Notes: generated by a model from the letters alone, not told the origin. DNA of 64,000 nt from a bacterium (GCA_037143175.1 JBAWZF010000006.1:3414-67413); one strand, 5' to 3'; counted from the first letter of the stretch, positions 3,676-59,966 are shown. Translations and numbers: made by a program.

Positions 3676-3677
3676 CA

Positions 3678-4313: not shown

Positions 4314-4512
4314 GTTCCACTTTCCGCCTTGTTAGGCTGTTGCTGTTCACCCGGCCGCACCTTGCGCCCGGAAATTCCTTTTCTCCCCCATGTATCGTGC
4401 CAGTCTGCCCGATTGGGTGAGCCCTTCTTTTCCCGGCGCTCCGGAGAAGGCCCCGTCCATCCCTTCCAGCCAGGAACCGGGACGGCCGCTTGCTCAAAGT
4501 CGGGCATCATGG

Positions 4513-10064: not shown

Positions 10065-11468
10065 TCATCCTGCCTGTGCAATTGTCATCCGGATAATGCC
10101 AGGCTCTTCCGTTGGCATGATAGCCCAATAGGCCTCCGCGTCTTCCTTCGTCACAAGAGCCCGGTAATGGTCAAAGAGCATGGACGTGTCCCGATGGTGC
10201 CCGAGCTCGAAGGCGGTCCGGGCCGGATCCCCGTACATGGCCAGGTGGTGAGACGCGAATGCATGGCGCATCCCGTTGCTAGGCCAGCGTGTCTTTGCCA
10301 GCCTCCGGACGTGATCAAACCGGAAGCGCCACTTATCCCCCTGGGGCGCCACAAAGCCAGCCTGTTCCCTGTGTGGCAATAGCCAGGCGGCCAGGTTGTC
10401 GGAAATGGTCACATGTCGCGCCCGGCGTTTCTTCGCGTAGTGGGGCATGACGGTGATCCGCTTGGCGGCCAGATTGATATCCTTCCAATCCATGCCCCGG
10501 AGTTCAGCCGTCCGCAAGCCGGCAAAGCAGCCGATGGCGAGCGGCGCCACCATGTTGGGCTCGATCTTGGCGGCCGTATTCAAGAGCGCCGTCACGTCCT
10601 GCCAGGTCAAACATTCCGGCATCTTCTCGTCTTCATGGTGCCGGGCGCGCGTTCGCCGGGTGAAGGGGTTTTCAGTGACATATTCTTTGCCGATAGCGAA
10701 ATTGAACAGGCCGCCGCCAAGCACCTGGTAATTCTTCTTCGTGATGTTCGACATTTCGGCGTGATGTTTCTTCTTCCACTTATCCGCGCGGCTTCGGATC
10801 CACTTCTCTACATCGTCACGGGTGATCTCTGTAATTAGGCGGTCTCCGTACACCTCCCGGAAAAGCCCCATCCTGTGTTCAAGGTCCCGTAGAGTGGTGG
10901 GGCGGACGTTTCGGTCTCTGGAATCTGCAAGGTGTTCGTCAATGACTTGTCCCACGGTTCGGCGTACCACCGGCGCCTTGTGCTTTCTGTAGTACCTGGC
11001 GGCCGTCTCCGGGGTGGCCGTGCCTTCGAGAATGGCAACGGTGGCCGCGTAGCTCCTTACCGCCTCCAGGATCGTGGCCGCGCCCCCGAGTGCCTGTGTG
11101 GCACTTATGTGTACTTTTACGGCTTCCCCCATCGTCATATCGGGCATATTGGCGGCAGTGAGCAATTCGGAGGCCTGGACGGCATCCAGACGCTGCCGGT
11201 CTGTCAGATTCATGGCCGCGTGCCCTTCATTCTTCCGGCGCAACTTTTCGGCATACAACCAGGTGCGGGCCTCCGCCTTCGTCTCAAACTGCTTCCGGAT
11301 CCGCTTGCCGTCCGGCGTCTTTCCGGCGTAGGCCTGCCAGGCTATCCGCTCTTCACCGTCCGGCCCCTTCCAGGTACGTTTCAGGAGGCCCTTATCATTT
11401 TTTGGCTTGCCGATATCCGCTTCCGCCCCTACATTCTCGCCATGTTTTTCAGTTCCAAGTTTATTCAT
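10065..11468 (-). CDS. int: tyrosine-type site-specific recombinase / phage integrase
   Basis: Start at MNKLGTEK with a GGAGGG ribosome-binding site. The C-terminal catalytic region (...RHAFASHHLAMYGDPARTAFELGHHRDTSMLFDHYRAL) has the R...H-x-x-R...Y signature. It lies 125 bp from a tRNA gene. Confidence 0.85.
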   Translation of the reverse strand: MNKLGTEKHGENVGAEADIGKPKNDKGLLKRTWKGPDGEERIAWQAYAGKTPDGKRIRKQFETKAEARTWLYAEKLRRKNEGHAAMNLTDRQRLDAVQASELLTAANMPDMTMGEAVKVHISATQALGGAATILEAVRSYAATVAILEGTATPETAARYYRKHKAPVVRRTVGQVIDEHLADSRDRNVRPTTLRDLEHRMGLFREVYGDRLITEITRDDVEKWIRSRADKWKKKHHAEMSNITKKNYQVLGGGLFNFAIGKEYVTENPFTRRTRARHHEDEKMPECLTWQDVTALLNTAAKIEPNMVAPLAIGCFAGLRTAELRGMDWKDINLAAKRITVMPHYAKKRRARHVTISDNLAAWLLPHREQAGFVAPQGDKWRFRFDHVRRLAKTRWPSNGMRHAFASHHLAMYGDPARTAFELGHHRDTSMLFDHYRALVTKEDAEAYWAIMPTEEPGIIRMTIAQAG

Positions 11469-11593
11469 GTGGCACCCTCCGTCTGTTTTGCAGGGATAGA
11501 GGTACACAAAAGTGCCACATGGAGTCAAGCAGCATTCTTTGCCGCTTGCGCGGATTTAGAAAAACCGAGTTTTATTGGGCTTTTATAGCCTTT

Positions 11594-11655
<62 letters not shown>

Positions 11656-11670
<15 letters not shown>

Positions 11671-42503: not shown

Positions 42504-43772
42504 ATGATGAATGCCATTGATGTATTGAAGGGGCGGGGGCTATTTGATGCCGTCACCAGCCCTGATATTATGAAGCAGGTGGAATCGTCCACCGCCGTGT
42601 ATGCCGGTTTTGATCCCACCTCCAATAGTTTGCAGGTCGGTAATTTCGTCACCATCATGGGCTTGGCCCATTTTCAGCGGGCCGGGCATAAAGTGATTGC
42701 ACTGGCCGGTGGAGCCACCGGAATGATCGGCGATCCCTCCGGAAAATCCAGCGAGCGGAATCTCCTTTCGCATGAGGATGTCGAGCGTAACCTGGTGGGC
42801 GTGAAGGAGAACCTGTCGCGCTTTTTGGATTTCGATTGCGAAATTGCGCCGGCGAAGATTGTAAACAACAACGATTGGATCGGGCGGTTCAGCTATATCG
42901 AATTCCTGCGTGACGTGGGCAAGCATTTCCGCATGGGTGCGATGCTGGGCAAGGAAAGCGTCCGAGCCCGCATGGAGAGTGAAGCGGGGATGAGCTATTG
43001 CGAGTTCAGTTACCAGCTCATTCAAGCGTATGACTTTTTACATCTCTGGGACACGGAGGATTGCCGCATTCAGATCGGCGGCTCTGACCAGTGGGGGAAT
43101 ATCACAGCTGGAACGGACTTGATCCGTAAATTGCGCGGGGGTGAAGCGTTTGGCATGACTTTCCCGATCATTTGCGACAGCAGCGGTCAGAAGTTCGGCA
43201 AGAGCGCGGGCAATGCGGTCTATCTGGACCACAATCGCACTTCGTATTATGACTTCTATCAGTTCTTTGTCCGGACAGAAGACGCGGATGTGATCCGGTT
43301 CCTGAAGATTTTTACTTTTCTGCCTTTGAGCCAGATCGATGAAATTGCCCGCGAAATGGCGGCCGCTCCGGAGAAACGGCTGGCCCAGAAAACCCTTGCG
43401 GAAGATATGACCCGGACCATCCATGGCCCCGAGGGTCTGGCGATCGCCCTGCGTGCCAGTGAGGTGCTGTTCGGTGGATCCATGGAGGGTATGAAGGCGG
43501 GAGATTTGATCACAGTTTTCGCCAACGTACCGTCACGTGAACTGCCTCTGGCCTCTGTCAAGGAGGCCGGGCTGCTGGATGTGGCCGTTGCAGCGGGTTT
43601 GTGCAAGAGCAAGGGTGATGCCCGCCGGTTGGTGACTGAGGGTGGTTTCTACGTAAACAATGTCCGCATGACCGATGCCGCAATGCGGATTGGCGGTGAC
43701 ATGCTGATCGAGGGGCGCGTCATGGTTCTGCGCGCTGGAAAGAAGAACTACTGCCTGGTCAAGGTGGTCTAG
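42504..43772 (+). CDS. tyrS: tyrosine--tRNA ligase
   Basis: Start at MMNAIDVLK. HIGH-region analogue, KFGKS (KMSKS) motif, C-terminal S4 domain. The 3-prime roughly 390 nt appear to be island-derived (see findings). Confidence 0.85.
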   Translation: MMNAIDVLKGRGLFDAVTSPDIMKQVESSTAVYAGFDPTSNSLQVGNFVTIMGLAHFQRAGHKVIALAGGATGMIGDPSGKSSERNLLSHEDVERNLVGVKENLSRFLDFDCEIAPAKIVNNNDWIGRFSYIEFLRDVGKHFRMGAMLGKESVRARMESEAGMSYCEFSYQLIQAYDFLHLWDTEDCRIQIGGSDQWGNITAGTDLIRKLRGGEAFGMTFPIICDSSGQKFGKSAGNAVYLDHNRTSYYDFYQFFVRTEDADVIRFLKIFTFLPLSQIDEIAREMAAAPEKRLAQKTLAEDMTRTIHGPEGLAIALRASEVLFGGSMEGMKAGDLITVFANVPSRELPLASVKEAGLLDVAVAAGLCKSKGDARRLVTEGGFYVNNVRMTDAAMRIGGDMLIEGRVMVLRAGKKNYCLVKVV

Positions 43773-44266
43773 CCAGATTGGCGGATTTGACGTATCGTTT
43801 CCCGGTAAAGCTCCACGGATATCCGTAAATGATGTTCTGTGACCAGTTCATCAACGGCTTTGATCGCCTCCGATTGGGAAATAAATTTGGCTCGTGCAGC
43901 CCTGATCATGATGCCCAGTGTGCCTGCAACGGGAAGTCCTTCGGCTGAGGCGATGCGTCGTACCAGGCTGTCGTCGGTTAGGATGAGCGATGGGCGGTGT
44001 TTTTTCGCCAGCGTCAGGACATGTCGGTCAGCCATGCTCAAGGCCGAGGCCGGGAAGAGTGAACTCTGTACGGTCTCGATACGACAATGTTTGAGGAATT
44101 CCCGAATGCGCTGCTGTTCATTAAATGGGATAGTATTTTGGGTGAGTTCGCGCCAAACGCTTTTAGGCAACAAAACCGTTCCGGGGAATACATTTCGGAT
44201 GAGCGCTAACTGATCCAATTTGGCCAGAAATATTACCGGGCAGGCGTCCGCCACAACAACATTCAT
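43769..44266 (-). CDS. PIN-domain protein of the DUF3368 family (putative toxin)
   Basis: 165 aa, N-terminal MNVVVADACPVIFLAKLDQLAL... PIN-like acidic residues. Overlaps the upstream UPF0175 gene by 4 nt. Confidence 0.6.
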   Translation of the reverse strand: MNVVVADACPVIFLAKLDQLALIRNVFPGTVLLPKSVWRELTQNTIPFNEQQRIREFLKHCRIETVQSSLFPASALSMADRHVLTLAKKHRPSLILTDDSLVRRIASAEGLPVAGTLGIMIRAARAKFISQSEAIKAVDELVTEHHLRISVELYRETIRQIRQSG

Positions 44267-44559
44267 GAGGCCAATTCCCTGCGAAGATCATCCGCCGTAA
44301 GATTTAGTTGCAGGCCGTTCTCCGGGAAACGGGTCAACAGGTCGTAGAGACTCATGTCGGCCATTTCCGCCGCGCGGGATAGTGTGACTTCACCACGGCG
44401 GTACGCAGCACATGCGGTTTCGCAGCGATAATCGGCATACCCCCGGCGCAGAAGACGTTTAAGCAACGATGACCGATCCAAGCCATCTTGGGCAGCCGCC
44501 TGATCCAGTAATTTGACTTCATCGGCATTCAGGCGAAGGGATAATGTCATAGTTTTCAT
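44263..44559 (-). CDS. UPF0175-family putative antitoxin
   Basis: 98 aa, ...LDQAAAQDGLDRSSLLKRLLRRG... Its pairing with a DUF3368 PIN protein is a known two-gene module. Confidence 0.55.
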   Translation of the reverse strand: MKTMTLSLRLNADEVKLLDQAAAQDGLDRSSLLKRLLRRGYADYRCETACAAYRRGEVTLSRAAEMADMSLYDLLTRFPENGLQLNLTADDLRRELAS

Positions 44560-44705
44560 TATGTATACGATTTCCTTATCTGTACACAGTTAATCAAAAT
44601 GGGCTTCATATGACAAGGAATCAATGTCATGGACGGATCCTGTCTAGTCAAGGTGGTCTAATCCATTTGCCCGAGCTAGTACGAGTGTGCTAGGTTTCTG
44701 CCAAC

Positions 44706-44880
44706 ATGAGCGGAAATATTTACCAGGAACTGACGCAGGCCTTTAACGCGGGACGGCTGCGAGCCATTCTGAGCAGTGGGCAGGCCGTCGTGATGCATCG
44801 GCTGGCCGTCATGAGCAAGGATGGCGATTGGATTCTGGGCGAGACGCCCGCTGTCCTTGTCTCACGTGCCGAAGGCCGGT
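44706..44880 (+). pseudogene. truncated gene fragment (N-terminal about 58 codons of an unidentified protein, then out-of-frame sequence)
   Basis: MSGNIYQELTQAFNAGRLRAILSSGQAVVMHRLAVMSKDGDWILGETPAVLVSRAEG reads like a real N-terminus. Beyond it the frame becomes Pro/Arg-rich nonsense overlapping other frames. Confidence 0.35.
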
Positions 44881-44992
44881 TGCCATTTCAAGACTGTTTG
44901 CTAATGCCGCCGAGACGTCGGCATCCACCTCGGAGGCCAAAGGCGCAAATTCGACACCTGGTGGGATATCCATTGACGGCGTGGACACGGGT

Positions 44993-45394
44993 TCAGGGAC
45001 GACCACCGGTACCGGGTCGGGTGTCGGCATTGGATCCATTACGGGCGATTCGTGATCTGCGCCGCTGCCTGCCCGCAATGCTTCGCATAGCGATGCAGGC
45101 GGGGGGATAGCGGCTACTACAACTTGAATTGGCACCAGACTGATATCCCGTCCCTAAGCGGACCTTCATCATGGCTACCCCTGCGCCTTGCCAGAGAACA
45201 AAGACCGGGCGTTGATTGGCGATGGCTGTCGAGACTGGCGCATAGACACTCGGACAGCAAATGATCCCCAAGCACTCCAGGATCAATCTGGCAATACGCT
45301 GACGCCCCGCCTCGGCTTCGGGTGGGAGTGTCACCACGACCAGTTTCAGGCCGCCACGAGCAAGAACCGGCTCCAGCTCCGGGATGAGTGACAA
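44993..45394 (-). pseudogene. degraded copy of the repeat-encoded gene (the homolog of 46523..46999 loses frame after ...GAGVAMMK)
   Basis: Shares ...SLIPELEPVLARGGLKLVVVTLPPEAEAGRQRIARLILECLGIICCPSVYAPVSTAIANQRPVFVLWQGAGVAMMK with the downstream copy. Its continuation is found in a different frame (ORF 44809..45135). Confidence 0.4.
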
Positions 45395-45410
45395 AGTGGA
45401 GGTGGGGCTA
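45163..45410. repeat. 248-bp direct repeat, copy A (100% identical to 46675..46922)
   Basis: Base-by-base comparison of the two stretches shows identity over 248 bp. Confidence 0.9.
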
Positions 45411-45552
45411 ACGGTAACTGTTTGTCTGTCCCGCCGCGCAATTCACGTACGGCAGAATATCGTTCTGCGAAACAATATGATAATCAATTCCATTGACTCG
45501 GAACGAGGTGGGTAGCATTATTTATGCAGATTTAATGAAAAGCTAAATTGCA

Positions 45553-45789
45553 ATGCCGACTGTACTAATTATAGGGCCATATCGGTTTTTCTTTTACGCA
45601 AGCGATCACGGGGAACCCCCTCATGTTCATATTGAGCGGGAGGACTGTGTGGCAAAGTTTTGGATTAATCCAGTTCGTTTAGAGCGTAGTGGGGGATTCA
45701 GTGGGCATGAGATATCGAAATTATGTCGCATGGTTGCTATACATGAATCGCTTCTGATGGAGAAATGGAATGAATACTTCAGCGCTTGA
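45553..45789 (+). CDS. DUF4160-family small protein
   Basis: MPTVLIIGPYRFFFYASDHGEPPHVHIERED... is the DUF4160 signature. Confidence 0.7.
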   Translation: MPTVLIIGPYRFFFYASDHGEPPHVHIEREDCVAKFWINPVRLERSGGFSGHEISKLCRMVAIHESLLMEKWNEYFSA

Positions 45790-46225
45790 GTTGCCGGGTT
45801 TGACCGCGGAAAAAGTTGCCGTAAATGACGAGAGCCTGATCGTGGATCTTTCTGATGGTCGTGTATTAAGCGTGCCGTTGGCGTGGTATCCCCGGTTATT
45901 ACATGGGACCCGGGCGGAGCTTCATCGGTGGCGGTTGATTGGGCGTGGATCAGGGATCCATTGGCCCGATTTGGATGAGGATATAAGCGTTGATGGGCTT
46001 TTGCGTGGTGCGAAATCTGGGGAGAGCCAAGCCTCCCTCTCGAAATGGTTGGTTGCCCGTCGGGATGTGGGGCCCATGGGGAAGAGGCGAAATATCCGGT
46101 TATCTGCAAATGAGTATACTCCTGCGAGCGCAGCAAAAGGTGTGCGTCGAGTGGCCGAGGGGTCGGCAGTTTATGGGAAGCCCTACAGGAAACCCAGATT
46201 GACAAAATCTGGAACAGTGCAATGA
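45770..46225 (+). CDS. DUF2442-family protein
   Basis: ...VAVNDESLIVDLSDGRVLSVPLAWYPRLLHGTRAELHRWRLIGRGSGIHWPDLDEDISVDGLL is DUF2442-like. Overlaps the DUF4160 gene (a typical two-gene module). Confidence 0.65.
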   Translation: MNTSALELPGLTAEKVAVNDESLIVDLSDGRVLSVPLAWYPRLLHGTRAELHRWRLIGRGSGIHWPDLDEDISVDGLLRGAKSGESQASLSKWLVARRDVGPMGKRRNIRLSANEYTPASAAKGVRRVAEGSAVYGKPYRKPRLTKSGTVQ

Positions 46226-46522
46226 GGCCAAAATTCCCGTCTGCGGCGGCGTTATCAGTTGATGGGTTATCAAGATGCTGAGGCGCCAAATGAAAGTCCA
46301 GCCGGAGAATCCTTAACGTCTTTTCCCGTTGTAGTAGCCGCTGTCCCCAGGCCCGCCCTCTGCCTCCTCGCCCCTTGCGGGAGAGGATTGAGGTGAGGGG
46401 TTTATAGCAACCGGTTCGTCCCTCTCAGTGCGCTCTGGTCAGGGACTGTCACTTTAGTCTGCGCAATACTGGTAAAGCGCATTGTGCAAAGAGTTAAGCC
46501 GATGATTTTGAGGATAGATTTT

Positions 46523-46999
46523 CTATCCCAGAGGGCTCTGCTCCGAAGGTGGCATCACCGGCGAGAGTGGTGGTTCGGTCATCGTAGGCGGTGTCACAAC
46601 GGGAGGCGGCACGAAGGCCGGTGCGGACACCGGTTCGACTTCTACTGGCGTAACATTTGACGAAAGGCGGAGTGCCTTCATCATGGCTACCCCTGCGCCT
46701 TGCCAGAGAACAAAGACCGGGCGTTGATTGGCGATGGCTGTCGAGACTGGCGCATAGACACTCGGACAGCAAATGATCCCCAAGCACTCCAGGATCAATC
46801 TGGCAATACGCTGACGCCCCGCCTCGGCTTCGGGTGGGAGTGTCACCACGACCAGTTTCAGGCCGCCACGAGCAAGAACCGGCTCCAGCTCCGGGATGAG
46901 TGACAAAGTGGAGGTGGGGCTATGCGTTGAAATCACCAGGCTGATCTCCTTAGATCCCGGAGTTGCAGACAAAGCCGGGGCTATGGCTAGTTTGGCCAT
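46523..46999 (-). CDS. hypothetical protein encoded across repeat copy B (Pro-rich C-terminus); family not recognised
   Basis: 158-aa ORF containing the same conserved segment as the degraded copy upstream. Confidence 0.4.
   Translation of the reverse strand: MAKLAIAPALSATPGSKEISLVISTHSPTSTLSLIPELEPVLARGGLKLVVVTLPPEAEAGRQRIARLILECLGIICCPSVYAPVSTAIANQRPVFVLWQGAGVAMMKALRLSSNVTPVEVEPVSAPAFVPPPVVTPPTMTEPPLSPVMPPSEQSPLG
46675..46922. repeat. 248-bp direct repeat, copy B
   Basis: Identical to 45163..45410. Confidence 0.9.
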
Positions 47000-47016
47000 C
47001 TTGGTAAACCGTATAT

Positions 47017-47490
47017 TTGCCGCCCGCCGATATCCCTGCGGATAATTTGTCTGTCCCTAAAGGCTCCCTGGAACTGGCCACGGCACCTGAGAAACGTCTC
47101 GCTCAACTCACGTTGGCGGATGAGATGACCAGGACTGTACACGGGGCGGAGGGGCTCGCCATAGCGCAACGCGCCAGCCAGGTGTTGTTCGGTGGCTCAA
47201 TGGAGGGGATGAAGGCGGATGATCTGATCAAAGTGTTTGCGAATGTGCCCTCGCGTGAGTTATCCTTGGATTCAGTTCGGGATGCCAGCTTCCTGGATGT
47301 GGCAGTGGTGTCAGGGCTCTGCAAGAGCAAGGGCGACGCGCGGCGGCTTGTGAACGAAGGCGGTTTTTACATCAATAACATCCGGATTACGGAACCTGCG
47401 GGGAAGATCACTGGCGACATGTTGGTGGATGGGCGTGTGCTGGTCATGCGGGCGGGAAAAAAGAACTATTGCCTGGTCAAGGTCGTCTGA
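47017..47490 (+). pseudogene. displaced 3-prime remnant of tyrS (C-terminal about 140 codons including the S4 domain; roughly 75% identical in protein to the live tyrS C-terminus)
   Basis: ...APEKRLAQLTLADEMTRTVHGAEGLAIAQRASQVLFGGSMEGMKADDLIKVFANVPSRELSLDSV...LCKSKGDARRLVNEGGFYINNIRI...GRVLVMRAGKKNYCLVKVV aligns residue for residue with TyrS 43370..43772. It has no N-terminal catalytic domain and no proper start. Confidence 0.8.
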
Positions 47491-47515
47491 GACAATCAAA
47501 AATAAGGATGGGATA

Positions 47516-48655
47516 ATGAGTACAATAAGATATTTTTCAACGGTATGGGCCGGTGTTGCGTTGCTTGCTTTATCAATGATTACGGCACGCGCGGAAGACA
47601 ATGGTGCCGAACATCCCTGGACAGTTAGTTTTGGACTTGGCAAACTCGACACTGAGGGCGATGCGATTGTCAATGACGCCAGCTTTTGCACGCTGTCGTT
47701 GGATTATTCCCTGTCGCACAGGTTCTCAATCGAAGGATCATTGACCTGGGTGCCACGGTTAACCGGAAATACTTTCACTGATTACTCATCCGGTTCACCG
47801 GAAACAGTTGATCGTCTGGAAGCCGAAACCGGCGCATCTGATACCTGGGCGGTGGGCGCCGCCGTTGATGTTTTATATCATATTTCCAGCGGGCAGAGGG
47901 TGGACCCGTATCTGTCCCTCGGTTATGGCGTTCTCCGCTATGGCGAAGAGATCGGCGAAAATGACTGTTACGATACGACACCGCGGGCCGGTGCCGGCCT
48001 GTTTTATCACCTCTCTGACTCAGTGGCCGTTCGTGCTGATTATGGCTATTACCTGAATGGAGACTGGCGGAAGAGTAATTCAAATTCAAAATTCGGGATC
48101 GGTCTTGCCTGGACCTTTGGTGCCAACAAGCCAGTGGTTTTGCCGCAATCGGTCGCAAGGCCGGGTGTTGAGGCATCCGTGATCCCCCCTGCGGGCGGCG
48201 AGGCCACCACGCGGGTGGCTGCACCAGTGGTTGTCGATTCGAAAAACAAATCTGACGATCGCGAGAAGTATGTATTGCACATAGAATTTGCCGAGGGCAG
48301 TTCAAAACTCATGGCGCAATACTATGAACATCTGGATGTGATCGGAACAATCTTGAAAGACACGCCGGACGTCACTGTGCGAATCGAAGGGCATTGCGAA
48401 CAGCTTGCATCCTCTTCCGAGCGTCAGGCTAAAAGCCTGACACAAAAGCGGGCCGAGGCTATCCGTGATTATTTGGCAGGCGACAAATGGAATATCGCCA
48501 AAAAACGCATGGAAGCCGTAGGGTGTGGATTTAGCATGCCGATTGAAAAACCGGATTTGATCAACGGCAACCTGGCAAATCGCCGGATTGAAATCTACAT
48601 CAACCGTCCTGCCGCATCCGCGAAGCAGGGGACTGTCACTCCGGCAGACAAATAA
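47516..48655 (+). CDS. OmpA-family outer-membrane protein (N-terminal beta-barrel plus C-terminal OmpA/Pal-like peptidoglycan-binding domain)
   Basis: Signal peptide MSTIRYFSTVWAGVALLALSMITARA. Alternating barrel strands. C-terminal ...TVRIEGHCEQLASSSERQAKSLTQKRAEAIRDYL...NRRIEIYI is an OmpA_C-like domain. Confidence 0.75.
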   Translation: MSTIRYFSTVWAGVALLALSMITARAEDNGAEHPWTVSFGLGKLDTEGDAIVNDASFCTLSLDYSLSHRFSIEGSLTWVPRLTGNTFTDYSSGSPETVDRLEAETGASDTWAVGAAVDVLYHISSGQRVDPYLSLGYGVLRYGEEIGENDCYDTTPRAGAGLFYHLSDSVAVRADYGYYLNGDWRKSNSNSKFGIGLAWTFGANKPVVLPQSVARPGVEASVIPPAGGEATTRVAAPVVVDSKNKSDDREKYVLHIEFAEGSSKLMAQYYEHLDVIGTILKDTPDVTVRIEGHCEQLASSSERQAKSLTQKRAEAIRDYLAGDKWNIAKKRMEAVGCGFSMPIEKPDLINGNLANRRIEIYINRPAASAKQGTVTPADK

Positions 48656-48662
48656 AAGTCTG

Positions 48663-51600
48663 TCACTGTTTGTAGAACGGCAGGTAGCGGTAGTATACTT
48701 CCAGGCATAATGCCGCCGTGGCGGTGGTGTACACCCGCCCGCCACGTTCGCCCAGCACGCACACCGGATCCCAACTGCCCTTGGCGGCACCTTTCATAAC
48801 CTGCCCGGTCAGCAGCGCCTGGACCAGGGCCTTGTTCCATGTGACAAACTCAGGGGCCCCCGACATGTGCAGCGCAAGCGTGGTGTAATACCAGAAATAC
48901 AGGTTCACGGTATGGTCCTTCGGCGACCACACCGGTAAACGGGCCATGAGATAGGGGATGGTCTCGCCCTGGCCGCGCATGCGGGTATTTTCTTTCATCA
49001 TTAACTGGCAGAACCAGCCTTCGGCTGTCATGGTGGGCGTTCCTGCATGCCCCGGCATATAGGCATAGAGCCCCTCTTCGTTTCCGCGTCGAACACAATC
49101 CAGCCATTTTTCAACCCACTGGAAATGCTGCGGGGGGATCTTGAAGCCGGCAATCATGGCGCTCTTCAGGGCCAGCACCTGCCAACCAGTCACGGACGTG
49201 TCACTGTCTTTCCGTGGTTCATATCGCCAACCAGCCCCGGGATTTTGTGCCTTCAAGATGAAGTCTACCGCCTTTTTAATGGGTTCATTCAGGCGTTGAT
49301 CACCCGTCATGGAATAGGATTCGCACAGGGCCGCAGTGGCCATTGCCTGGCCATACATCTGTCCTTCCCGTTGCAGGTTGCCGTCTTCCTTCTGTCCGTC
49401 GACAAGCCAGTTCAGTGCCTTGCGCACCGACTCCTTGTGCTCGCCCTTCACATGCGTATACCCGGCGCCCAGATAGGATAGCAGGCACAAGCCGGTGAGC
49501 GCCACATCATCATCACTGCGGTCACCACCTCCACCACAACGGGAGATGGTTTTGAATCCATCCACATCCCAGCGACCATCATCGCTTTGTGCCTTGGCTA
49601 GCCAGATGAGTGCCTCTTCGACAGCCTGTTCGGTTCTGACGGATCCGCCTAGCTCACGGATGATGTCCTTGCGTTTTTCCGGAGTTCTGAGTTTGTACAG
49701 CGCTTTTTCTGGAACGGTCTTCGGCACGGAAGCCAATTCATCCGATATCAGCAACCGTGGCGTCTCCTTGCCACTGAACCCTAACACTGGCTGAGCGGAA
49801 TGCCCCCTCTGTCCATCGCCCCCGGCCTTCAAATCAATATCCATCCTTGTATGCGGCCTGCCTGCGGAAGAAGACATACTTGCGGAATCAAAATCCATCA
49901 ATCCGCCACCGGCTGGTGCGCTATCCGGCATGAATTGTCCGCCCGCCTTGGTGACAATAATCTCTGCCGCCGTCTTTGGTCCCGTGGAAACGGTTGCGCT
50001 GTCACCTTGGCCCATGCCTTCCGCGGCCAGTTCCCTGCCGGTTTCGCCAAATGACAAGCGCACGTCATTTCCGACCGCAGATCCGGATCTTATCAATGAT
50101 ACTGAATCCTGCCCGATGCCGCTCCCCTTCGTGCCGCGGGGTTGTGCCGCAGGGAGGGCGTCCACATCCGCCAGGCTTACGTTGATGTTGCCTCCCATCG
50201 ACGAGGTCGGCAGTGAAAGCTGCGACCGTGAGCCCTGTTCGCCCGTCTGCGAAATTCCAGCATCAGCCTTTTCAGGCTTGAGGCCGATGCGGGCGAGTGC
50301 CGACTGAATTTCATTGCCACTGGAAAGTGTGCCTGTGTCCGCCGTGGCCATTGCCGGGGCCAGCCCGGCAAGGATATCAGCCACTTTTGCGCCAGCCCCT
50401 GCAGCGGAGCCCGGATTCTCAATTTTTGTTGCATCAACATCAGCCGCCATAGAGCCGGACAAGCCTCCTATCAGTACTTCAGTTGCTTTGCCAGCTAGCG
50501 AGTTGTGTGTGCCTGCCGCCCCGGAAAGAACGCGCCCAGCGTTCAGTCGTTGCGAAAAAGCCGCATCGTCAGGCTGTCCCCAACTTCCGGCGGCCTGGCT
50601 CTTGCCGGTTGTCAAGGCATACCGCAGTTTGTCAATTCCGCGGAGAGATCTCACCTCTTCGCTGGCACTACCCGATGAAATGGTCGCCGCCGGTGCCGCG
50701 GCGCCACCCATATCCACCATTGCTATTGCCATTGAGCGCGAAACAGCCGATGTGAGTTCACTCGTGTCTCCTGCGGGGCGCGTGGTAGTCTGTGCCTGTG
50801 CTCCCGGAACGTCAAAGGGGGTGCGCTCACCGGCGCCGGCTGTGTGATTTTCGGATGTTGTCAAATCGACTGAGTGTCGTGCCACCCATCCACTGTTTAC
50901 GTCCGGAATGTCTCCCGTGGTCAATCCGCTCTTTACAGCTGCAATAGATTCAAAAGCATCACGACCATTCAATTGTGCTGGCATGGACGATTGTGTGCGC
51001 TCAACCTGAATTCCCGCTGCGGATCCACCTACATCCACGAGGGGGTGGGTGCCGGTTTCACCCATTGTTACCAGTAACCGGTCCTGTAGGGCGAGGCGGT
51101 CAGCGCCCGCGGGAGCTGTCTCTTTTGTGGAAGTGACTCTAAATTTGGTATTCTCAGCCGCCGGACGTCTTTCCAGCGTAATTGACGCTTTGGACCGGTT
51201 CAGTGGGGCCTCTTGCATCGCGGATGTTTGTCCGCTCCGTAAGGTTCTGACCTCTTTTTGGGTGTCAAAGACGGGTTCAGCTGCCAGCGCAGCGGCAGCT
51301 GGGCCAACCACGGGGCGTTGCGTGTCGGTCATCCGGACTGGTGCGCTCAGGAATTGTGCATGACTCGTTTCGCGTTGTTGGGGCGTTGTATCCACCCGCG
51401 GTTGTGATTTCCGGGTTATGGGGGTGGCATCGGACAGGCTGGCAGCGGCCACTCTGGCCATTGTGCCTTTCAACTCGCGCGACAACATTGCCGCCGCCGG
51501 CGCATCGGGTGCCGATGTTCCCTGGTGAGCGACATCCATGGCGTGTGATGGCTCACCTGTACGCTTTATTTCCATCCGGCCGGGTGCCTCTGCATCCTGG

Positions 51601-52523
51601 ATTTGTTTCGCCTTCAAGTTCAATGCTTCGATTTTACCGGCGCTACCGCTGGTCCGCAGTATATCGTCCGTTTTTCGCCCGCCGTGCTGTATGGGTTCAA
51701 TTTTTACGGTATCCCGCGTGAGTGTCCGCTGCATTTCATTCCTAGTCACATTCCGGTGGTCATTAATTGGAGCGGCCAGGGTATCGATCTGCAGTTTTTG
51801 GGGCATCTGCCCAGGCAGTTCCCGGGGCGATGGTTTCACTGGAGCGGTTTCGCCGGCATTCTTGATCTGGGCGAGGGCGACCAGTTTAGTCTTGTTGATA
51901 TCGGGAATCGTCTCTTCAGTCCTGGTGAGCGCTTCCTGAAGCTGCGCTTTGGCCCGTGAAGCCTCAACGGGCTTCATTTTTTCCTGCATGGGCTCCGGTG
52001 GCGGCCCGTGCTTCAGTTCCAGCATTAGCTGCGCCGCCCTGGCTTCAATGGGATCCACCAGTGATTCCTTTTTGACGGATAGTTCCCGGAGATCGGGCTT
52101 TGTGGTTGCGGTAAACTGTGCCCGCATATCCTGGCTTAACTGGCTTTCCGTCATCGGGGGGACACTCGATGACAACTCCAACCTGCCTGCGGTCATGTCA
52201 ACTTCGGGCACCGGGGTGCTCAAGACAAACAGACCGAACAACGAGGCCGTCAACATGTGTGCCACGATGCTGATGAACATGCCGAGCGCGACAAAGCCAG
52301 AGGTCTGACGACGCCCGGCGGCCAGCAGTGAAATCACCAGAAGACCGACAGCTGTCAGGATGGCCGCCAACAGGGGGAAGCCGAATCGCGCCAGGACATA
52401 ATGCCAGTATTGCGCCCAGCTGACAGGCGCCAGAAAACTGGTCGCGACAGCGGCGACAAGGCCTGCGGCAATCAGCACCCACATCCAGGGCTGCAACGCT
52501 GATCCTCGTACGTTACCCTTCAA
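48663..52523 (-). CDS. 1286-aa polytopic membrane protein: three N-terminal TM helices, an about 850-aa low-complexity Ala/Thr/Ser/Gly/Pro-rich region, and a C-terminal prenyltransferase/squalene-cyclase-type alpha/alpha-toroid repeat domain. It occupies the TolA/TonB position after exbB-exbD.
   Basis: One uninterrupted ORF. N-terminal hydrophobic segments (WMWVLIAAGLVAAVATSF, FGFPLLAAILTAVGLLVISLLAA, FVALGMFISIVAHMLTASLFGLFVL). C-terminal repeats with DDGRW / GWRYEP / QNPGAGW-type motifs typical of Prenyltrans/SQHop_cyclase repeats. It starts 32 nt after the exbD stop. Confidence 0.7.
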   Translation of the reverse strand: MKGNVRGSALQPWMWVLIAAGLVAAVATSFLAPVSWAQYWHYVLARFGFPLLAAILTAVGLLVISLLAAGRRQTSGFVALGMFISIVAHMLTASLFGLFVLSTPVPEVDMTAGRLELSSSVPPMTESQLSQDMRAQFTATTKPDLRELSVKKESLVDPIEARAAQLMLELKHGPPPEPMQEKMKPVEASRAKAQLQEALTRTEETIPDINKTKLVALAQIKNAGETAPVKPSPRELPGQMPQKLQIDTLAAPINDHRNVTRNEMQRTLTRDTVKIEPIQHGGRKTDDILRTSGSAGKIEALNLKAKQIQDAEAPGRMEIKRTGEPSHAMDVAHQGTSAPDAPAAAMLSRELKGTMARVAAASLSDATPITRKSQPRVDTTPQQRETSHAQFLSAPVRMTDTQRPVVGPAAAALAAEPVFDTQKEVRTLRSGQTSAMQEAPLNRSKASITLERRPAAENTKFRVTSTKETAPAGADRLALQDRLLVTMGETGTHPLVDVGGSAAGIQVERTQSSMPAQLNGRDAFESIAAVKSGLTTGDIPDVNSGWVARHSVDLTTSENHTAGAGERTPFDVPGAQAQTTTRPAGDTSELTSAVSRSMAIAMVDMGGAAAPAATISSGSASEEVRSLRGIDKLRYALTTGKSQAAGSWGQPDDAAFSQRLNAGRVLSGAAGTHNSLAGKATEVLIGGLSGSMAADVDATKIENPGSAAGAGAKVADILAGLAPAMATADTGTLSSGNEIQSALARIGLKPEKADAGISQTGEQGSRSQLSLPTSSMGGNINVSLADVDALPAAQPRGTKGSGIGQDSVSLIRSGSAVGNDVRLSFGETGRELAAEGMGQGDSATVSTGPKTAAEIIVTKAGGQFMPDSAPAGGGLMDFDSASMSSSAGRPHTRMDIDLKAGGDGQRGHSAQPVLGFSGKETPRLLISDELASVPKTVPEKALYKLRTPEKRKDIIRELGGSVRTEQAVEEALIWLAKAQSDDGRWDVDGFKTISRCGGGGDRSDDDVALTGLCLLSYLGAGYTHVKGEHKESVRKALNWLVDGQKEDGNLQREGQMYGQAMATAALCESYSMTGDQRLNEPIKKAVDFILKAQNPGAGWRYEPRKDSDTSVTGWQVLALKSAMIAGFKIPPQHFQWVEKWLDCVRRGNEEGLYAYMPGHAGTPTMTAEGWFCQLMMKENTRMRGQGETIPYLMARLPVWSPKDHTVNLYFWYYTTLALHMSGAPEFVTWNKALVQALLTGQVMKGAAKGSWDPVCVLGERGGRVYTTATAALCLEVYYRYLPFYKQ

Positions 52524-52555
52524 TGATCATTTTCCGTTCGCGAAATAGCTTCACC

Positions 52556-52969
52556 TTATTTGTCGCCTTGGTTGGTCGTGAGATAGGTATGTTTCACGCT
52601 GTGTTTTTCGCACAGGTCCAGAATATTCACGGCGAACTGGAGTACTGCGCGTTTGTCGCCACGGATGACCACGGCCTGATCGGGATTCTCTGATTTTGCC
52701 ATGCCGATAAGCCGGTCAACCTCCTCAGTCTGTCGTACTTGTCCGCCAATGACGAATTGTCCATCCTGGCCAACATTGACCACCATTTCCCGTGGCATGG
52801 CCATCATGGGCCTGGCATTGCGGCTGTCCGGCGGTTTCACGCGGACATCCCGCTCAATATCAGCGAACTTCGTGGCCATCAGGAAAAAAACCAGGAGGAA
52901 CATCATCGTGTCGATCATGGGGATCACGTTGATGCCGAAAAAATCATGTTCGGGAATTTTTATTCGCAT
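52556..52969 (-). CDS. exbD: ExbD/TolR-family biopolymer transport protein
   Basis: 137 aa, single TM (INVIPMIDTMMFLLVFFLM) plus periplasmic domain. Directly follows exbB. Confidence 0.8.
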   Translation of the reverse strand: MRIKIPEHDFFGINVIPMIDTMMFLLVFFLMATKFADIERDVRVKPPDSRNARPMMAMPREMVVNVGQDGQFVIGGQVRQTEEVDRLIGMAKSENPDQAVVIRGDKRAVLQFAVNILDLCEKHSVKHTYLTTNQGDK

Positions 52970-52983
52970 CGTGGGGCCCAGTC

Positions 52984-53787
52984 TCAGCTTTTGGAAGCCA
53001 GTTTTTCAGCCAGTTCCGTCGCGGTATAGTCAATTTCGCTCACCAGCCGCTCTACCCGTTCCTGGAAGAAGAAATACATGACCAGGGCCGCGATGGCGAT
53101 CGTCAACCCCACTGCCGTTGCCACAAGGGCCTCATAAATGCCCCCGGCAAGGAGTTCCGTCCGGCCCAGCGCGTCTTCCGATGCGGCCACGGTCATGAAC
53201 GTGCGGATAATACCTGTGGCCGTCCCCAGCAACCCGAGCAGCGGAGCCACACTCGCCACGGCGGACAGCACACGGTTATTCCGCTGGAGCTTGGAGACCT
53301 CTTTGGCGGCCGTGTCCTCCATGGCCTTTTCCACTTCCATGATGGGGCGGTTTGCACGGCGTATGCCAGCCGCCACGATGCGTGCGAGGGGACTTGTCGC
53401 ACCTTCCAGTTGTGCCTGCAAGGCCTGGGCATTGAAGGTGTCCCCGGGTTGGTCCAAGGCTGTGCGCAGTTGCAGCACGGTTTGTGGTGGCGACACCACC
53501 CGGTTGCGAAGGGTGAAGAGGCGTTCAAAAGCGAATCCCAGCGCAAGAATGCTGCAGAGATAGAGCGGGTACATGACAGGTCCGCCTTTTTGCAGGAGCT
53601 GAATCATGGTCAGGTCACGCATGTCAGGGGCGGTGCCTGTTGTTTCCTTGCTCGTCACTACCGTTCCGGTTTGTTGCCCCATGCCGGTCGCTGCTCGTGG
53701 CGCTGGCTGTTTATCGGCCTGCGCCATGGTCACGCCCGCACACAACATAATGATACCCATCACACAAACAAACCTGTACTTGGTCAT
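52984..53787 (-). CDS. exbB: MotA/TolQ/ExbB-family proton channel
   Basis: ...MYPLYLCSILALGFAFERLFTLR..., ...SAVASVAPLLGLLGTATGIIRTF..., conserved three-TM core. Has an N-terminal signal-like extension. Confidence 0.8.
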   Translation of the reverse strand: MTKYRFVCVMGIIMLCAGVTMAQADKQPAPRAATGMGQQTGTVVTSKETTGTAPDMRDLTMIQLLQKGGPVMYPLYLCSILALGFAFERLFTLRNRVVSPPQTVLQLRTALDQPGDTFNAQALQAQLEGATSPLARIVAAGIRRANRPIMEVEKAMEDTAAKEVSKLQRNNRVLSAVASVAPLLGLLGTATGIIRTFMTVAASEDALGRTELLAGGIYEALVATAVGLTIAIAALVMYFFFQERVERLVSEIDYTATELAEKLASKS

Positions 53788-53832
53788 GAAACACTCCTCT
53801 TGTAGTTATCGAGATTCGGACACGTCAATGGG

Positions 53833-56800
53833 TCATTTTGCGCTACGCCGTTCCGTTGCGGGTTTGGCCCATTTCGTGTCGCTGAAGTTTTTGATAATAT
53901 CGTTGTATGAGTTCAATGCTTGCGCCTTATCGCCCAGCGCCTCATAACATTTGGCGCTCTCAAACATGGCCCCCGCCACCCATTCGCGATGTTCACGGTA
54001 GAGGGCAATGACCCGCAGGTAAGCCATGATGGCAGCTTTATAATCGCTCTTGGCCTGCGATATCTGACCGATACAGAACTGTGCTTCCGCACCGGTTTCA
54101 GTCTTGGTGCGCTTAGTCACTTCCAGGAAGCTCTCCTCGGCGTCCGGGTATTTACCGAGGTTGAACCGGGCTTTCCCCAGCAGGAAATGGGCCTGGACGA
54201 GGATGCGATCATCGGGACTTTTCCTGATCAGGGTTTCGAGCGGATTGATCGCCTCCGCATACTTGTCAGTGATGATGAGGCAATTGGCCAGCCCCAGGCA
54301 GGCATCGGGCAAGAATTCATGTGTCGCCGACCGCTTGTCGACAATGAACTGGCGGAAGCGCTCAATAGCCAGCGCGGTCTGTCCGTTCCTGGCATGGGCC
54401 TGCGCCGCCTGCAGAAGGGCATCAGGGAACAGTTCGTTATCAGGGAAATCCTTCACCATGCAGTCGAATTCCACGGCCGCCTTCGCATAGCGGTCCATCA
54501 GCCAATAGCACCAGCCCATGCGGAAACGGGCCTTGTCCGCGAGGCGTTTGTCCTTGGAGGTGTCCAGCACCTTGCCGTAAAGGTCTAGAGCCCCGTCGAG
54601 TCGCCTGGTGCGGGCTTCAGGTTTTTCGCCGGCGGCTTCCTCCGGCTTTATTTTGTATGTGGCCTCGGCCAGGTAGAAATAGGCGTCTGCGGCTAGCGCA
54701 TCCTTCGGGAATATATCGGCGAGCTGCCGGAACACACGGAGGGCGTCATTATCCTTTCCTGCCTGCCGCCAGGACCAGGCCTGCTCATACAGGATGCGGA
54801 CCCTGTCATCTGCCGCAGGGTAGTTTTCATCCAGCGTCTTGTATGTTGCCGCTGCTTCCGCCCATTTCTGCTGTTCCTGCTGGCAGGTGCCAACCGCTAA
54901 CAGGGCTGTGCGCGCGAGATCGTGTTTCGGGAAGGCGGTGAGGACTGCGGTGGCGGCCTGTTCCCCCTCAGACCATTTTTTCATTTTGATGAGGCTTCTG
55001 GCCTTGCGATATAACGCCTGCGCGGTCAGGTCCGCAGCGGGGTATTTCGCGGCCATTTTGTCGAATGCCTGCACCGCCTCATTCCATTGTTCCCGGTCGT
55101 AGTAACACAGGCCGATGCCGAACAGCGCGTAGGGGGTGAGCTCATCCGCTTTTTCGCGACTGGCCACCAGTGTATATTTATCCACCGCCTTCTCATAGGC
55201 TTTCTGGTCGTAGTAGCACTCCGCAAGTTGATATTGAACCTGGGGGAGCAATTCACTGGCGGGATAGTCTTTGAGGAAACGTTCCAGGTGTTTGGCGGCG
55301 CCAGCCTTTTTGTCCTGCTTCATGTCGGCCACTGCCAGTTTCAGGAGGGCATCATCACCGAACCGGCTATGCTCCGGGGTATCGAGGTAGGCGGTCAGGG
55401 CCTTGCCCACCAGATCGTATTTTGCCATTTCGAACAGGCAGAGACCCTCAAGATAAAGCATCTCGGAGGCAATCGAAGCGCCGGCCGCCTTCGCGTCGAT
55501 GATCTTGAGTTCATCGAGTGCCTCCTTGTTACGCTTTTCGTAGTGGTGCACCCAGGCCAGCCGGTAGTGGGCGCGGGCCACGCGATCCAATGCCTTGTCC
55601 CCTTTCTGCAGGAACTCCTGGTAACGTTCAGCAGCGCGGGCGTATTGCTTGAGCAGGAACCGGTTTTCACCGCTCAGAAACAGCACTGGAGGAAGCAGAT
55701 CGTTCTTGCCGAACTTATCGCGGAAGGAGTCGCACAGGGCGTCGGAATCGGCATACTTATCGGCGCGATGCAGTGCGGCACAGGCTGAATACAGGGCGCG
55801 CGGCGCCTGGTCGTTTTTCTCAAAGGCCGCGGCATACTCCTTGAAGGCCCCGGCCGCCTCCTCAAATTTATTCCTTGCCAGCCGGGCATCCGCCAGGCCG
55901 AGGTGCATGTCGCCTGCCATGGATGACTGCGGAAAATCATGCAGGGAATCGCTCAGTACCTTTTCGGCCTCTTCAGCCCTGTCAGATTTCAGCAGGCTCA
56001 TCGCGACCCAGTACGAAGCCTCGTCAGCCAATTCCTTTTTGTTTTTCCGCACGGGGTCAAGCCGCTCAATGGCATTCTTGTAGTCGCCGGCCTCAAAGAG
56101 GGCGGTGCCGGAGTACAGCCGCGCCTTGGCCGCCTGTGGGCTCTGTGGAAAACGGCTGGCCAGCTGTTCAAATGCGACGGCAGCCTCTTTCAGTTTGCCA
56201 GCCTTGTAGAGGGCCAGTCCGCGTTCATACCCGGCGGCCTCGGAAAATTTTCCACTTCCCTCCGTGACCGATTCATAGGCCGCTGCGGCCTTAGCATAGG
56301 CATCCTGCCTGTAGAGTGACTGGGCCAGGCGGAAACGCGCCTCCTCATGCAGTTCGCTTTTGGGATACTTCGCGAGGAACCGCTCGAACGATTTCTGCGC
56401 CTCGCTGAAACGATTCTGATTGAACTGCGCAAAGGCATAATTGAAGAGGCTGCGTTCGATGAGGTTCAGAAAGGCCTCACCAGCCTTGATCCCGGCGGCA
56501 TCAAGCTTTTGCAGCATGGCCTTCGTTTCCGGTGTGCTGTCTCCCTCATACTTGTCGACGTACAGTTTTAGCAGGTCTTCAGCTTCCTTGTTCTTCTCCA
56601 TGCTGATTAGGCAGGCGGCCTGGCGGGCCATGGCCCAATCAGCAAGGTAGTGAGTTGCATATTTTTCGCGGATCTGCGCGAACAGTGCAACCGCATCGTT
56701 GAATCTGCCAAGCGCCACATAGGTCTGGCCGAGTTGGAACAGCATTTCGGCGGATTGCGGAAAGTTGGGACTGTCGGTGCGGACCTGCTCATACGCTTTG

Positions 56801-57072
56801 GCGGCCTGTTCAAACTTGTCGGTATGGAACAGCGCCTGGGCCAGGCCAAACTGCGCATCAGCCTTGTGTGCATGGTCAGGATAATTCTTCAGGAACGCAT
56901 TATAGGAATCCGCAGCCATGTCATACTTGCCGCTGTTATACAGCCAGACGGCAAAATTGTAGTCATCCACCGCTTTGGTGGCCGTCTTGTCCATGGCGGC
57001 CGTGAGTGACATTACGGCGCCGAGGCTGACAAGGCAAAACAGGGCCGCAATCTTTTTTGTGACAAAATGCAT
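53833..57072 (-). CDS. 1078-aa TPR-repeat protein with N-terminal signal/anchor and a C-terminal CpoB/YbgF-like TPR module
   Basis: Start at MHFVTKKIAALFCLVSLGAVMSLTAA. Dozens of TPR units (A..Y.....Y..A). The C-terminal end resembles the Tol-Pal-associated YbgF/CpoB TPR domain. It is the first gene of the exbB-exbD-giant-protein operon. Confidence 0.7.
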   Translation of the reverse strand: MHFVTKKIAALFCLVSLGAVMSLTAAMDKTATKAVDDYNFAVWLYNSGKYDMAADSYNAFLKNYPDHAHKADAQFGLAQALFHTDKFEQAAKAYEQVRTDSPNFPQSAEMLFQLGQTYVALGRFNDAVALFAQIREKYATHYLADWAMARQAACLISMEKNKEAEDLLKLYVDKYEGDSTPETKAMLQKLDAAGIKAGEAFLNLIERSLFNYAFAQFNQNRFSEAQKSFERFLAKYPKSELHEEARFRLAQSLYRQDAYAKAAAAYESVTEGSGKFSEAAGYERGLALYKAGKLKEAAVAFEQLASRFPQSPQAAKARLYSGTALFEAGDYKNAIERLDPVRKNKKELADEASYWVAMSLLKSDRAEEAEKVLSDSLHDFPQSSMAGDMHLGLADARLARNKFEEAAGAFKEYAAAFEKNDQAPRALYSACAALHRADKYADSDALCDSFRDKFGKNDLLPPVLFLSGENRFLLKQYARAAERYQEFLQKGDKALDRVARAHYRLAWVHHYEKRNKEALDELKIIDAKAAGASIASEMLYLEGLCLFEMAKYDLVGKALTAYLDTPEHSRFGDDALLKLAVADMKQDKKAGAAKHLERFLKDYPASELLPQVQYQLAECYYDQKAYEKAVDKYTLVASREKADELTPYALFGIGLCYYDREQWNEAVQAFDKMAAKYPAADLTAQALYRKARSLIKMKKWSEGEQAATAVLTAFPKHDLARTALLAVGTCQQEQQKWAEAAATYKTLDENYPAADDRVRILYEQAWSWRQAGKDNDALRVFRQLADIFPKDALAADAYFYLAEATYKIKPEEAAGEKPEARTRRLDGALDLYGKVLDTSKDKRLADKARFRMGWCYWLMDRYAKAAVEFDCMVKDFPDNELFPDALLQAAQAHARNGQTALAIERFRQFIVDKRSATHEFLPDACLGLANCLIITDKYAEAINPLETLIRKSPDDRILVQAHFLLGKARFNLGKYPDAEESFLEVTKRTKTETGAEAQFCIGQISQAKSDYKAAIMAYLRVIALYREHREWVAGAMFESAKCYEALGDKAQALNSYNDIIKNFSDTKWAKPATERRSAK

Positions 57073-57384
57073 GGCGATTTTCTCCGAAGACGCACGGAAC
57101 GAACGGTTTTGCACACGATCCATTCGTGCATGGAATTATATGGATAAGAAGTCTCTTTTCGGACGGCACGGACACTTGCCCGTTGTAACCCCCTTTGAAA
57201 CAACAATTTCCTAAGGAATGCTGTCAAAATAGAAATGTAAAAGCAAGCCCAAGGACGAGTTTGTCAAACCATAATATTTGATTTTTGACCGGGCTTGGGC
57301 GGTTGAAGTCGTTCGGCGTGTGCTGCAACAACTGGAGCGGGAGATGCGATGAATCTCCTTTTCGCGCGTACACGTCTCCGCGAT

Positions 57385-59595: not shown

Positions 59596-59966
59596 GTCTG
59601 CGTTTTCTCCACTCGACGTTAAGAGGGCATCGCGTCATCAGTCAACGACTTGCCGCGTGTTATGGCCAGTGATCCTATAAACAGCATACCCCTCCGCCGC
59701 ACAAGGCACTGCGGGCTTTATGGGCGGCTTCCTTCATATTTCTCCAATGCCATCAGAATACTCTGTCTCTCATTCGGCCGCAAGCCTGCCCACGCGGCTC
59801 ACGCAAGGTTCGCCCTCCAGCAGAATAATCTTTAGCTTCTCGATCTTTCTTTTTGGAGGGCGAAGCTTGCCTGAGCCGCGTTGAACGTGGCTCTGGTCGC
59901 CAGTTCCGAACTCCGGGAAATCCGAACTCGACGCGTGCTGCAGGAATTCGTACGCTAGATGCCCTT

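Follow-up and report, generated by a model that had tools for sequence, protein, structure and literature searches.

Several integrative elements enter a protein-coding gene at its 3′ end and bring a replacement for that end with them, among them phage 21 and e14 (in icd), SGI1 (in trmE), and ICESt1/ICESt3 (in fda); their integrase-less derivatives are the cis-mobilizable elements (CIMEs). Gene ends are also displaced in loci of the rhs and contact-dependent inhibition (CDI) type, and Jackson and colleagues reportedly ascribed this in 2009 to homology-facilitated illegitimate recombination (HFIR). Orphaned 3′ ends in rhs and type VI secretion system (T6SS) loci have been attributed to the same process (Kirchberger et al. 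2017, PMC5361080). Here, we describe a displaced 3′ end of the aminoacyl-tRNA synthetase gene tyrS in a 64,000-nucleotide stretch of DNA (GCA_037143175.1 JBAWZF010000006.1:3414-67413; referred to as the window, and positions are counted from its first letter) from a metagenome-type assembly of an uncultured freshwater bacterium (Kiritimatiellia, in the Planctomycetes-Verrucomicrobia-Chlamydiae, or PVC, group). The end of the live gene is foreign DNA, and the original end lies stranded downstream, beyond an island of about 3.3 kb made up of predicted toxin-antitoxin (TA) cassettes and gene debris. With moderate confidence, we attribute the displacement to a one-sided homologous crossover combined with an illegitimate joint, that is, to HFIR, at a variable, TA-collecting interval between tyrS and uvrA.

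Related tyrS loci were collected by a scan of one genome per species, which returned 80, all from metagenome-assembled genomes of freshwater or anoxic Kiritimatiellia/PVC bacteria, with fetched flanks of at most 10 kb. A sequence-only reading of the window had placed the end of the live tyrS at 43772 and had noticed downstream a second, diverged copy of that end, at roughly 75% protein identity, with the S4 domain intact and no catalytic domain. Both claims hold. The live open reading frame (ORF) has a plausible start at 42504, and its last 139 codons (tail A, 43353-43772, within the imported tract) align without gaps to those of the distal copy (tail B) at 107 of 139 residues (77%; BLASTP E = 1e-75), with nucleotide homology of about 70% between 43352-43772 and 47068-47490. 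The distal ORF (47017-47490) matches the Pfam families SYY_C-terminal and S4, and the catalytic domain is absent. Between the two tails, the proportion of differing synonymous sites (pS) is 0.78, which is saturation, and that of nonsynonymous sites (pN) is only 0.13; they therefore diverged as working gene ends in separate lineages, not as a gene end and its decaying local duplicate.

Comparison with the relatives tells which tail is resident. Tail B is 92 to 100% identical in nucleotides (60-nt windows) to the tyrS tail of L016 (pS, 0.08; pN, 0.015) and is native-like from its first bases. Its pS to L002 is 0.25, and L002 carries no island: its tyrS is followed directly by the ompA-like gene, and its positions 4539-5605 are colinear with window positions 47071-48137 (89% identity). 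In protein sequence, the tail of L002 agrees with the distal copy at 93.5% identity and with the live tail at 76%. A third relative, L104, has the same tail followed by ompA and the large downstream gene (93%). Tail A, by comparison, is closest to L091 (95% amino acid identity; pS, about 0.3 to 0.4). Because L002, L016, and L104 match the distal copy and L091 matches the live tail, the distal fragment is the original resident tail, still beside its resident neighbor ompA, and the end of the live gene was imported. The sequence-only reading had likewise taken the distal fragment for the displaced original end and the live gene for one with a replacement tail, and had proposed a comparison with relatives in which tyrS is directly followed by the ompA-like gene; L002 is such a relative. 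The related genomes did not show the inserted segment as ancestral, with the fragment as part of another functional gene.

The live tyrS is a mosaic. Synonymous divergence taken per segment shows a 5′ part equidistant from several relatives and a 3′ third like that of L091. Informative sites were scored with L091 as a proxy for the donor and L002/L016 as proxies for the resident. In the neighboring S1 gene and the S1-tyrS spacer, 23 sites are native-like and 4 donor-like; the count becomes 16 against 9 in tyrS 42509-43139 and 2 against 12 in 43218-43343, and beyond that point nearly all sites are donor-like. The catalytic part of the gene (42504-43352) is near-saturated among all relatives (pS, 0.47 to 0.86, including L016 versus L002), compared with a pS of 0.08 to 0.25 between tail B and its relatives, 0.26 between the tails of L016 and L002, and 0.22 to 0.33 between relatives in S1. 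Such near-saturation, despite the closeness of S1 or of the tails, points to repeated recombination within tyrS.

The two edges of the foreign DNA do not coincide. On the right, a three-way junction alignment shows the island edge fused directly to tyrS codon 284, at 47066-47069, with at most 3 nt of microhomology. In sister strains, the DNA of this edge is part of the ordinary chromosome, and the place of the cut is arbitrary: the sequence that abuts the joint lies upstream of a LacI-like gene in L141, and in the sister strains L141 and L142 that gene is found about 10 kb away, upstream of a block of TPR, ExbB, and ExbD genes. On the left, the foreign tract, as estimated from the proxies, starts upstream of the equivalent of 43352, where the resident tail takes up again; the distance is at least 50 nt and probably about 135 nt, and the distal copy lacks the resident stretch that corresponds to about 43220-43351. 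Nucleotide alignment of the two tails, which had been proposed as a means of locating an att core, gave no identical run of 7 nt or longer at the tail boundary, the first shared 8-mer lying about 20 nt inside. A conservative, reciprocal exchange at one core would have made the breakpoints coincide; an offset of this kind, with a small deletion in the recipient, is what a homologous crossover on the left and a separate joint on the right predict.

These are the marks by which HFIR is recognized. Sites in the conserved anchor pass from native-like through mixed to donor-like from 43218-43302 onward, as after a homologous crossover; downstream of the anchor there is an illegitimate joint (47066-47069), and the intervening recipient DNA has been lost; and the position of the joint varies among independent events. 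On the last point, the known tyrS remnants have four different 5′ boundaries, at −139 codons (window), −92 (P0016/L087), −78 (L088), and −7 (44640-44660), these being the four cases found. The L088 case (identical to L114, Ga0194063_10005239; positions 1-4756) is an independent second one, in which the end of tyrS gives way to an island of 3.5 kb whose cargo is different (a multiheme cytochrome, an Fe-dependent repressor, and two unknowns), then a 78-codon remnant of the tyrS tail, a different DUF4160/DUF2442 pair, and uvrA. Most other short tyrS-tail proteins in the database were rejected as contig-end truncations or as products of a frameshifted scaffold (L089, L090, L152, and L153), leaving L088 and the P0016 contig as the only true lone tails among database proteins. 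No repeats of the tyrS end were found downstream of tyrS in the 80 related loci with up to 4 mismatches allowed.

The course of events proposed here would run as follows. From a starting arrangement of S1, tyrS (with tail B), and ompA, as in L002, donor DNA would have arrived from a related Kiritimatiellia lineage with an L091-like tyrS 3′ third. This DNA would have carried tail A and, directly against the tyrS stop, a PIN/UPF0175 cassette, followed by an older scar of a tyrS end (21 nt) and further cassette and gene debris ending near a LacI-like gene. Its left end would have paired homologously with the resident tyrS upstream of about 43220-43300 and recombined with it at about 43140-43300, and its nonhomologous right end would have been ligated into the resident tyrS at codon 284 (47066-47069), with the loss of about 50 to 150 nt of resident tyrS. 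The incoming tail would thus have completed the essential gene, stranding the 139-codon resident tail 3.3 kb downstream; later, recombination between 248-bp repeats would have begun to remove a DUF4160/DUF2442 unit in part of the population. The sequences themselves show the resident or foreign origin of each part, the offset of the breakpoints, the makeup of the right edge, the lack of recombinases, and the indel in the population; the HFIR mechanism, the single-event history, and the route of DNA entry are what we infer. Coordinates of the features are collected in Table 1.

Table 1. Features of the tyrS locus and island in the window
Feature	Position	Strand	Details
Live tyrS	42504-43772	+	Intact, 422 aa; Pfam tRNA-synt_1b 3e-77, SYY_C-terminal, S4
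Imported L091-like tract in live tyrS	43218-43772	+	From informative sites; left edge approximate, between 43140 and 43302
TA cassette, ~845 nt	43775-44618	-	PIN/DUF3368 plus UPF0175/RHH; Pfam, PADLOC
PIN/DUF3368 toxin (predicted)	43769-44266	-	Pfam
UPF0175/RHH antitoxin (predicted)	44263-44559	-	Pfam
Third tyrS-end remnant, 21 nt	44640-44660	+	Last 6 codons plus stop; C-L-V-K-V-V-stop
Gene debris	44661-45162		134-aa ORF without family match; Pro-rich frame on minus strand
R1, proximal repeat copy	45163-45410	-	248-bp perfect direct repeat; internal segment of LacI-like gene
DUF4160/DUF2442 pair	45553-46225	+	DUF4160 45553-45789; DUF2442 45770-46225; Pfam 1.3e-17, 8.1e-23
LacI-HTH-family gene fragment, 5′-truncated	46540-47036	-	Contains R2 (46675-46922); aligns to L141 1306-1802
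Right edge of island	47037-47069		33 nt found upstream of LacI-like gene in L141 (1079-1111, 97%)
Tail B, displaced resident tyrS tail	47071-47490	+	139 codons plus stop, uninterrupted, inside ORF 47017-47490
OmpA-like gene, resident downstream neighbor of tyrS	47519-48655	+	Pfam OMP_b-brl plus OmpA

The cargo named in the sequence-only reading (a PIN[DUF3368]/UPF0175 pair, a DUF4160/DUF2442 pair, gene fragments, and a 248-bp perfect direct repeat) was recovered by Pfam and repeat searches. The stop codon of the PIN gene overlaps that of tyrS, the PIN and UPF0175 genes overlap by 4 nt, and their proteins match the PADLOC candidate system PDC-S70 (1.9e-26 and 5.7e-8). At the nucleotide level, this cassette is 88% identical to a solitary copy between glycoside-hydrolase genes in an unrelated locus (L149), near which no recombinase was seen. 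The nearest PIN homologue (85% amino acid identity) is located in a glycoside-hydrolase cluster away from tyrS, and the cassette is therefore not tied to tyrS. The DUF4160 and DUF2442 genes overlap by 20 nt, with a weak NCBIfam match to DhiT, and are predicted to form a DhiT/DhiA-like TA module. Judged by their domains, both pairs have the putative layout of type II TA systems, namely, small, adjacent, overlapping genes with toxin and antitoxin domains.

Behind the PIN/UPF0175 cassette and a 20-nt spacer lies a third tyrS end, a 21-nt remnant absent from the sequence-only reading. It shows synonymous differences only, has one mismatch to the native L091 tyrS end, and would be expected by chance 0 times. 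The debris that follows gave no Pfam, NCBIfam, or PADLOC match between 44661 and 45162. The two copies of the 248-bp repeat (R1 and R2) bound a unit whose presence varies within the population: on both flanks L082 is 100% identical to the window, yet it lacks exactly 1,512 bp (45411-46922), equal to one repeat copy plus the DUF4160/DUF2442 unit. The natural C terminus of the LacI-like gene falls inside the segment missing from L082, so the two-repeat form is the older, and L082 is a deletion through repeat-repeat recombination. The LacI-like fragment beside the right edge lacks the 194 nt encoding the HTH domain and is 97% identical to the full-length P0024 (246 aa, PF00356).

Some further observations were made on these parts of the island. 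Single-nucleotide polymorphisms separate the two 248-bp repeat copies in other samples. An inverted repeat of 34 nt (82% complementary; 45095-45128 and 46323-46356) brackets R1 and the DUF4160/DUF2442 pair, and both of its arms fall in similar short coding pieces (VVVAA-I/V-P). The LacI-HTH protein with its Pro-rich tail, which is 246 aa long in full, turns up again, whole or in fragments, in variable regions of L141, L142, and L143-L148, one of which is a defense-like cluster with Abi_2, Fic, and SLFN.

The sequence-only reading had seen in this locus the footprint of an integrase-type integrative element. Such a degraded island is possible, if doubtful: an attP-borne tyrS tail of 420 nt would have integrated site-specifically, perhaps twice in tandem, which would account for the 21-nt and 420-nt remnants, and the integrase and much of the cargo would then have been lost by deletion, leaving a CIME-like remnant flanked by att sites. 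The architecture is the classical one, with an essential gene restored by an element-borne 3′ end and the old end at the far side; the three serial tyrS ends resemble tandem accretion; L088 offers a second, independent island with a tyrS-tail remnant, and L002 an empty target site; and deletions are evident (for example, the 194 nt of the LacI-like gene), so that the loss of an integrase is conceivable. Against this stand, first, the searches for a recombinase. No integrase, resolvase, or transposase domain was found in a six-frame Pfam scan of 43700-47100, where only the two TA pairs matched, in agreement with the earlier statement that no integrase remains. None was found either in about 100 related loci, where the 7 kb downstream of tyrS contained 345 ORFs of at least 170 aa, in a screen that used phmmer with XerC, XerD, lambda Int, gamma-delta resolvase, and the window's own integrase as seeds rather than the full Pfam. 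That screen did recover the window's own integrase (10068-11555; Pfam Phage_integrase, 1.3e-11), which is linked to a tRNA-Arg gene, and across 1.6 Mb of fetched loci its sole recombinase match was one resolvase-like ORF in L076. No viral contig bearing a tyrS tail was found in IMG/VR, the island DNA had no match in plasmid and phage collections, no contig with a predicted circle junction was seen among the fetched loci, and we found no report in the literature of tyrS as an att site.

The junctions also speak against a degraded element. The 420-nt repeats, at about 70% identity, share no core at their boundary; the donor tract extends upstream of that boundary, an argument that is proxy-based and not absolute; the remnants begin at four different places; and the right edge is chromosomal. 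An integrase origin would therefore also need later recombination to have blurred the breakpoints and deletions to have trimmed the remnants, and the integrase-type footprint as such found no support in the window or in its relatives.

It is improbable that a Campbell-type insertion-duplication produced the arrangement, in which circular DNA with a tyrS 3′ fragment, for instance a cassette circle released by recombination between repeats, would have entered by a single RecA-dependent crossover, duplicating the homologous segment, and the distal copy would have been trimmed afterward by deletion. Long, near-identical direct repeats do flank other modules, namely, the 248-bp repeats, 77-nt repeats in L141, and the tail copies of L088, and the 1,512-bp loss seen in L082 would release such a circle. 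However, tails A and B have no identical run long enough for efficient exchange, and a distal copy that is native-like from its first bases would need a crossover at the extreme edge or an additional deletion. The L141 repeats (943-1018 and 1869-1946) flank the LacI-like gene there and consist of the 3′ end of a neighboring 70-aa gene, the partner of a PIN-domain gene; they show the same pattern elsewhere, a gene end duplicated around an insert. Equally improbable is a reading in which the 3′ ends of tyrS and other genes are dedicated docking points for small integrase-less cassettes in freshwater Kiritimatiellia. Here an unrecognized trans-acting recombinase or a cassette-borne activity may be at work, retention may be secured through the end of the essential gene, and the 77-nt repeats of L141 may be another instance.

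Whatever its origin, the distal ORF might have been retained as a functional, stand-alone S4-domain protein, which we consider very unlikely. The ORF is uninterrupted, has a possible TTG start, is annotated as a gene of 147 to 157 aa in several assemblies, retains both of its domains, and has few nonsynonymous changes relative to L016, but a pS of only 0.08 to L016 leaves too little time for decay to be expected, the first 18 codons are junction sequence, and no family of such proteins was found, the short tails in the database being mostly truncations. An assembly chimera of two strains with different tyrS tails, which a metagenome-type assembly and the repeats in the region might suggest, is scarcely credible, since the distal tail has non-tyrS sequence and not a catalytic domain as its left neighbor, and since contigs L081-L086 (ENA, JGI, and Logan; independent samples and assemblers) reproduce the island architecture at 99.9 to 100% identity, so that it is not an assembly artifact.

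HFIR remains our preferred explanation, and several points weigh against it. No genome of the same species with an unoccupied site was found, so that the left breakpoint rests on the proxies L002, L016, and L091, which are themselves mosaic; the donor-like run is also broken up by two native-like sites (43277 and 43280). An integrase could have been deleted, and later deletions could likewise have shifted the boundaries of the remnants. In L088, the 107 nt of the two tail copies that can be compared before the contig ends match at 100%, and the copies differ only in their last 8 nt, which fits an in situ duplication or a Campbell-type insertion as well as it fits HFIR. The 21-nt scar, its 20-nt spacer, and the perfect 248-bp repeat call for extra events. 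HFIR is also rare in experiments.

The interval between tyrS and uvrA varies from 0 to about 16 kb across the relatives. The two genes are adjacent, with nothing between them, in L010, L012, and L092; elsewhere the interval holds TA modules (AbiEi/AbiEii in L003, L005, and L006; ParE in L014). In the window it spans about 16 kb (43772-59967) and contains the island, ompA, a 1,286-aa protein, ExbD, ExbB, a TPR protein, and a helicase. The helicase is PIF1-like with an HTH_40 domain (57385-59595, minus strand), and its site is empty in L141 and L142. Just upstream of uvrA, at 59649-59790, a TA pair that is intact in L141 has suffered a deletion, so that the first 8 codons of its PIN gene run straight into the last ~20 codons of the partner gene. 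Two ideas about the larger arrangement were set aside. One, in which the 12-kb block from ompA to the TPR gene, ending in the LacI-like gene, would be a mobile unit and the LacI/tail junction a circle or tandem junction, was weakened because copies of the LacI-like gene are also found in variable regions unrelated to this one (L143-L148) and because the neighborhood of uvrA contains no tyrS remnant. The other, an inversion between tyrS and uvrA, was dropped; in relatives, the TPR, ExbB, and ExbD genes that follow uvrA are of different sizes and probably represent paralogues.

Farther away in the window, the tyrosine integrase mentioned above (minus strand) lies directly beside tRNA-Arg(TCT) (11594-11670, plus strand), about 32 kb from tyrS, and probably belongs to a separate integrative island. 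No repeat of the tRNA-Arg 3′ end was found in window positions 1-24000. A repeat scan of the first 24 kb also gave a tandem array at 6502-6563 with an 11-nt period (CGTTGTTGGCC-like, at least 4 copies).

No new kind of system is revealed here: the locus is best read as a recombination scar at a cassette-collecting hotspot, of a sort that recurs in the clade. If the recombinational explanation is true, it is a clean natural case of gene-tail displacement in which the gene affected is an essential housekeeping gene and the host belongs to an uncultured lineage of the PVC group. The exchange of islands at a hotspot could then cut into and remodel the flanking core gene, which would explain the mosaicism of tyrS among close relatives. 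There is also a caution in it. Taken alone, a gene tail duplicated beside small cargo genes does not amount to evidence for an element with an integrase, and island prediction that relies on repeats can therefore mislabel recombination scars.

Among described systems, the closest functional match is the C-terminal displacement of polymorphic-toxin (rhs, CDI, and T6SS effector) loci. The locus has in common with these a conserved 5′ anchor, an incoming 3′ end with small adjacent genes, an old end orphaned downstream, strings of remnants left by serial events, and no dedicated recombinase. It differs in that the gene is an essential aminoacyl-tRNA synthetase whose new tail is orthologous (77% amino acid identity) and brings no new function, in that TA cassettes take the place of cognate immunity genes as passengers, and in that the displacement was probably neutral, a by-product of the exchange and not a diversification favored by selection. 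With the elements of the icd, trmE, and fda type it shares an imported 3′ end that preserves function, a displaced end at the far side, an empty site in relatives, and the possibility of tandem remnants; unlike them, it has no integrase and no shared core, and its breakpoints are offset, its remnant boundaries variable, and its edge chromosomal. Finally, it resembles TA-collecting chromosomal hotspots and defense islands in being a variable interval between core genes with PIN/UPF0175, DUF4160/DUF2442, AbiEii, and ParE modules, where tyrS, the core gene flanking the interval, is a recombination mosaic. Unlike at the usual hotspots, the essential gene at the flank was itself cut by the exchange here, and its tail is now present twice.

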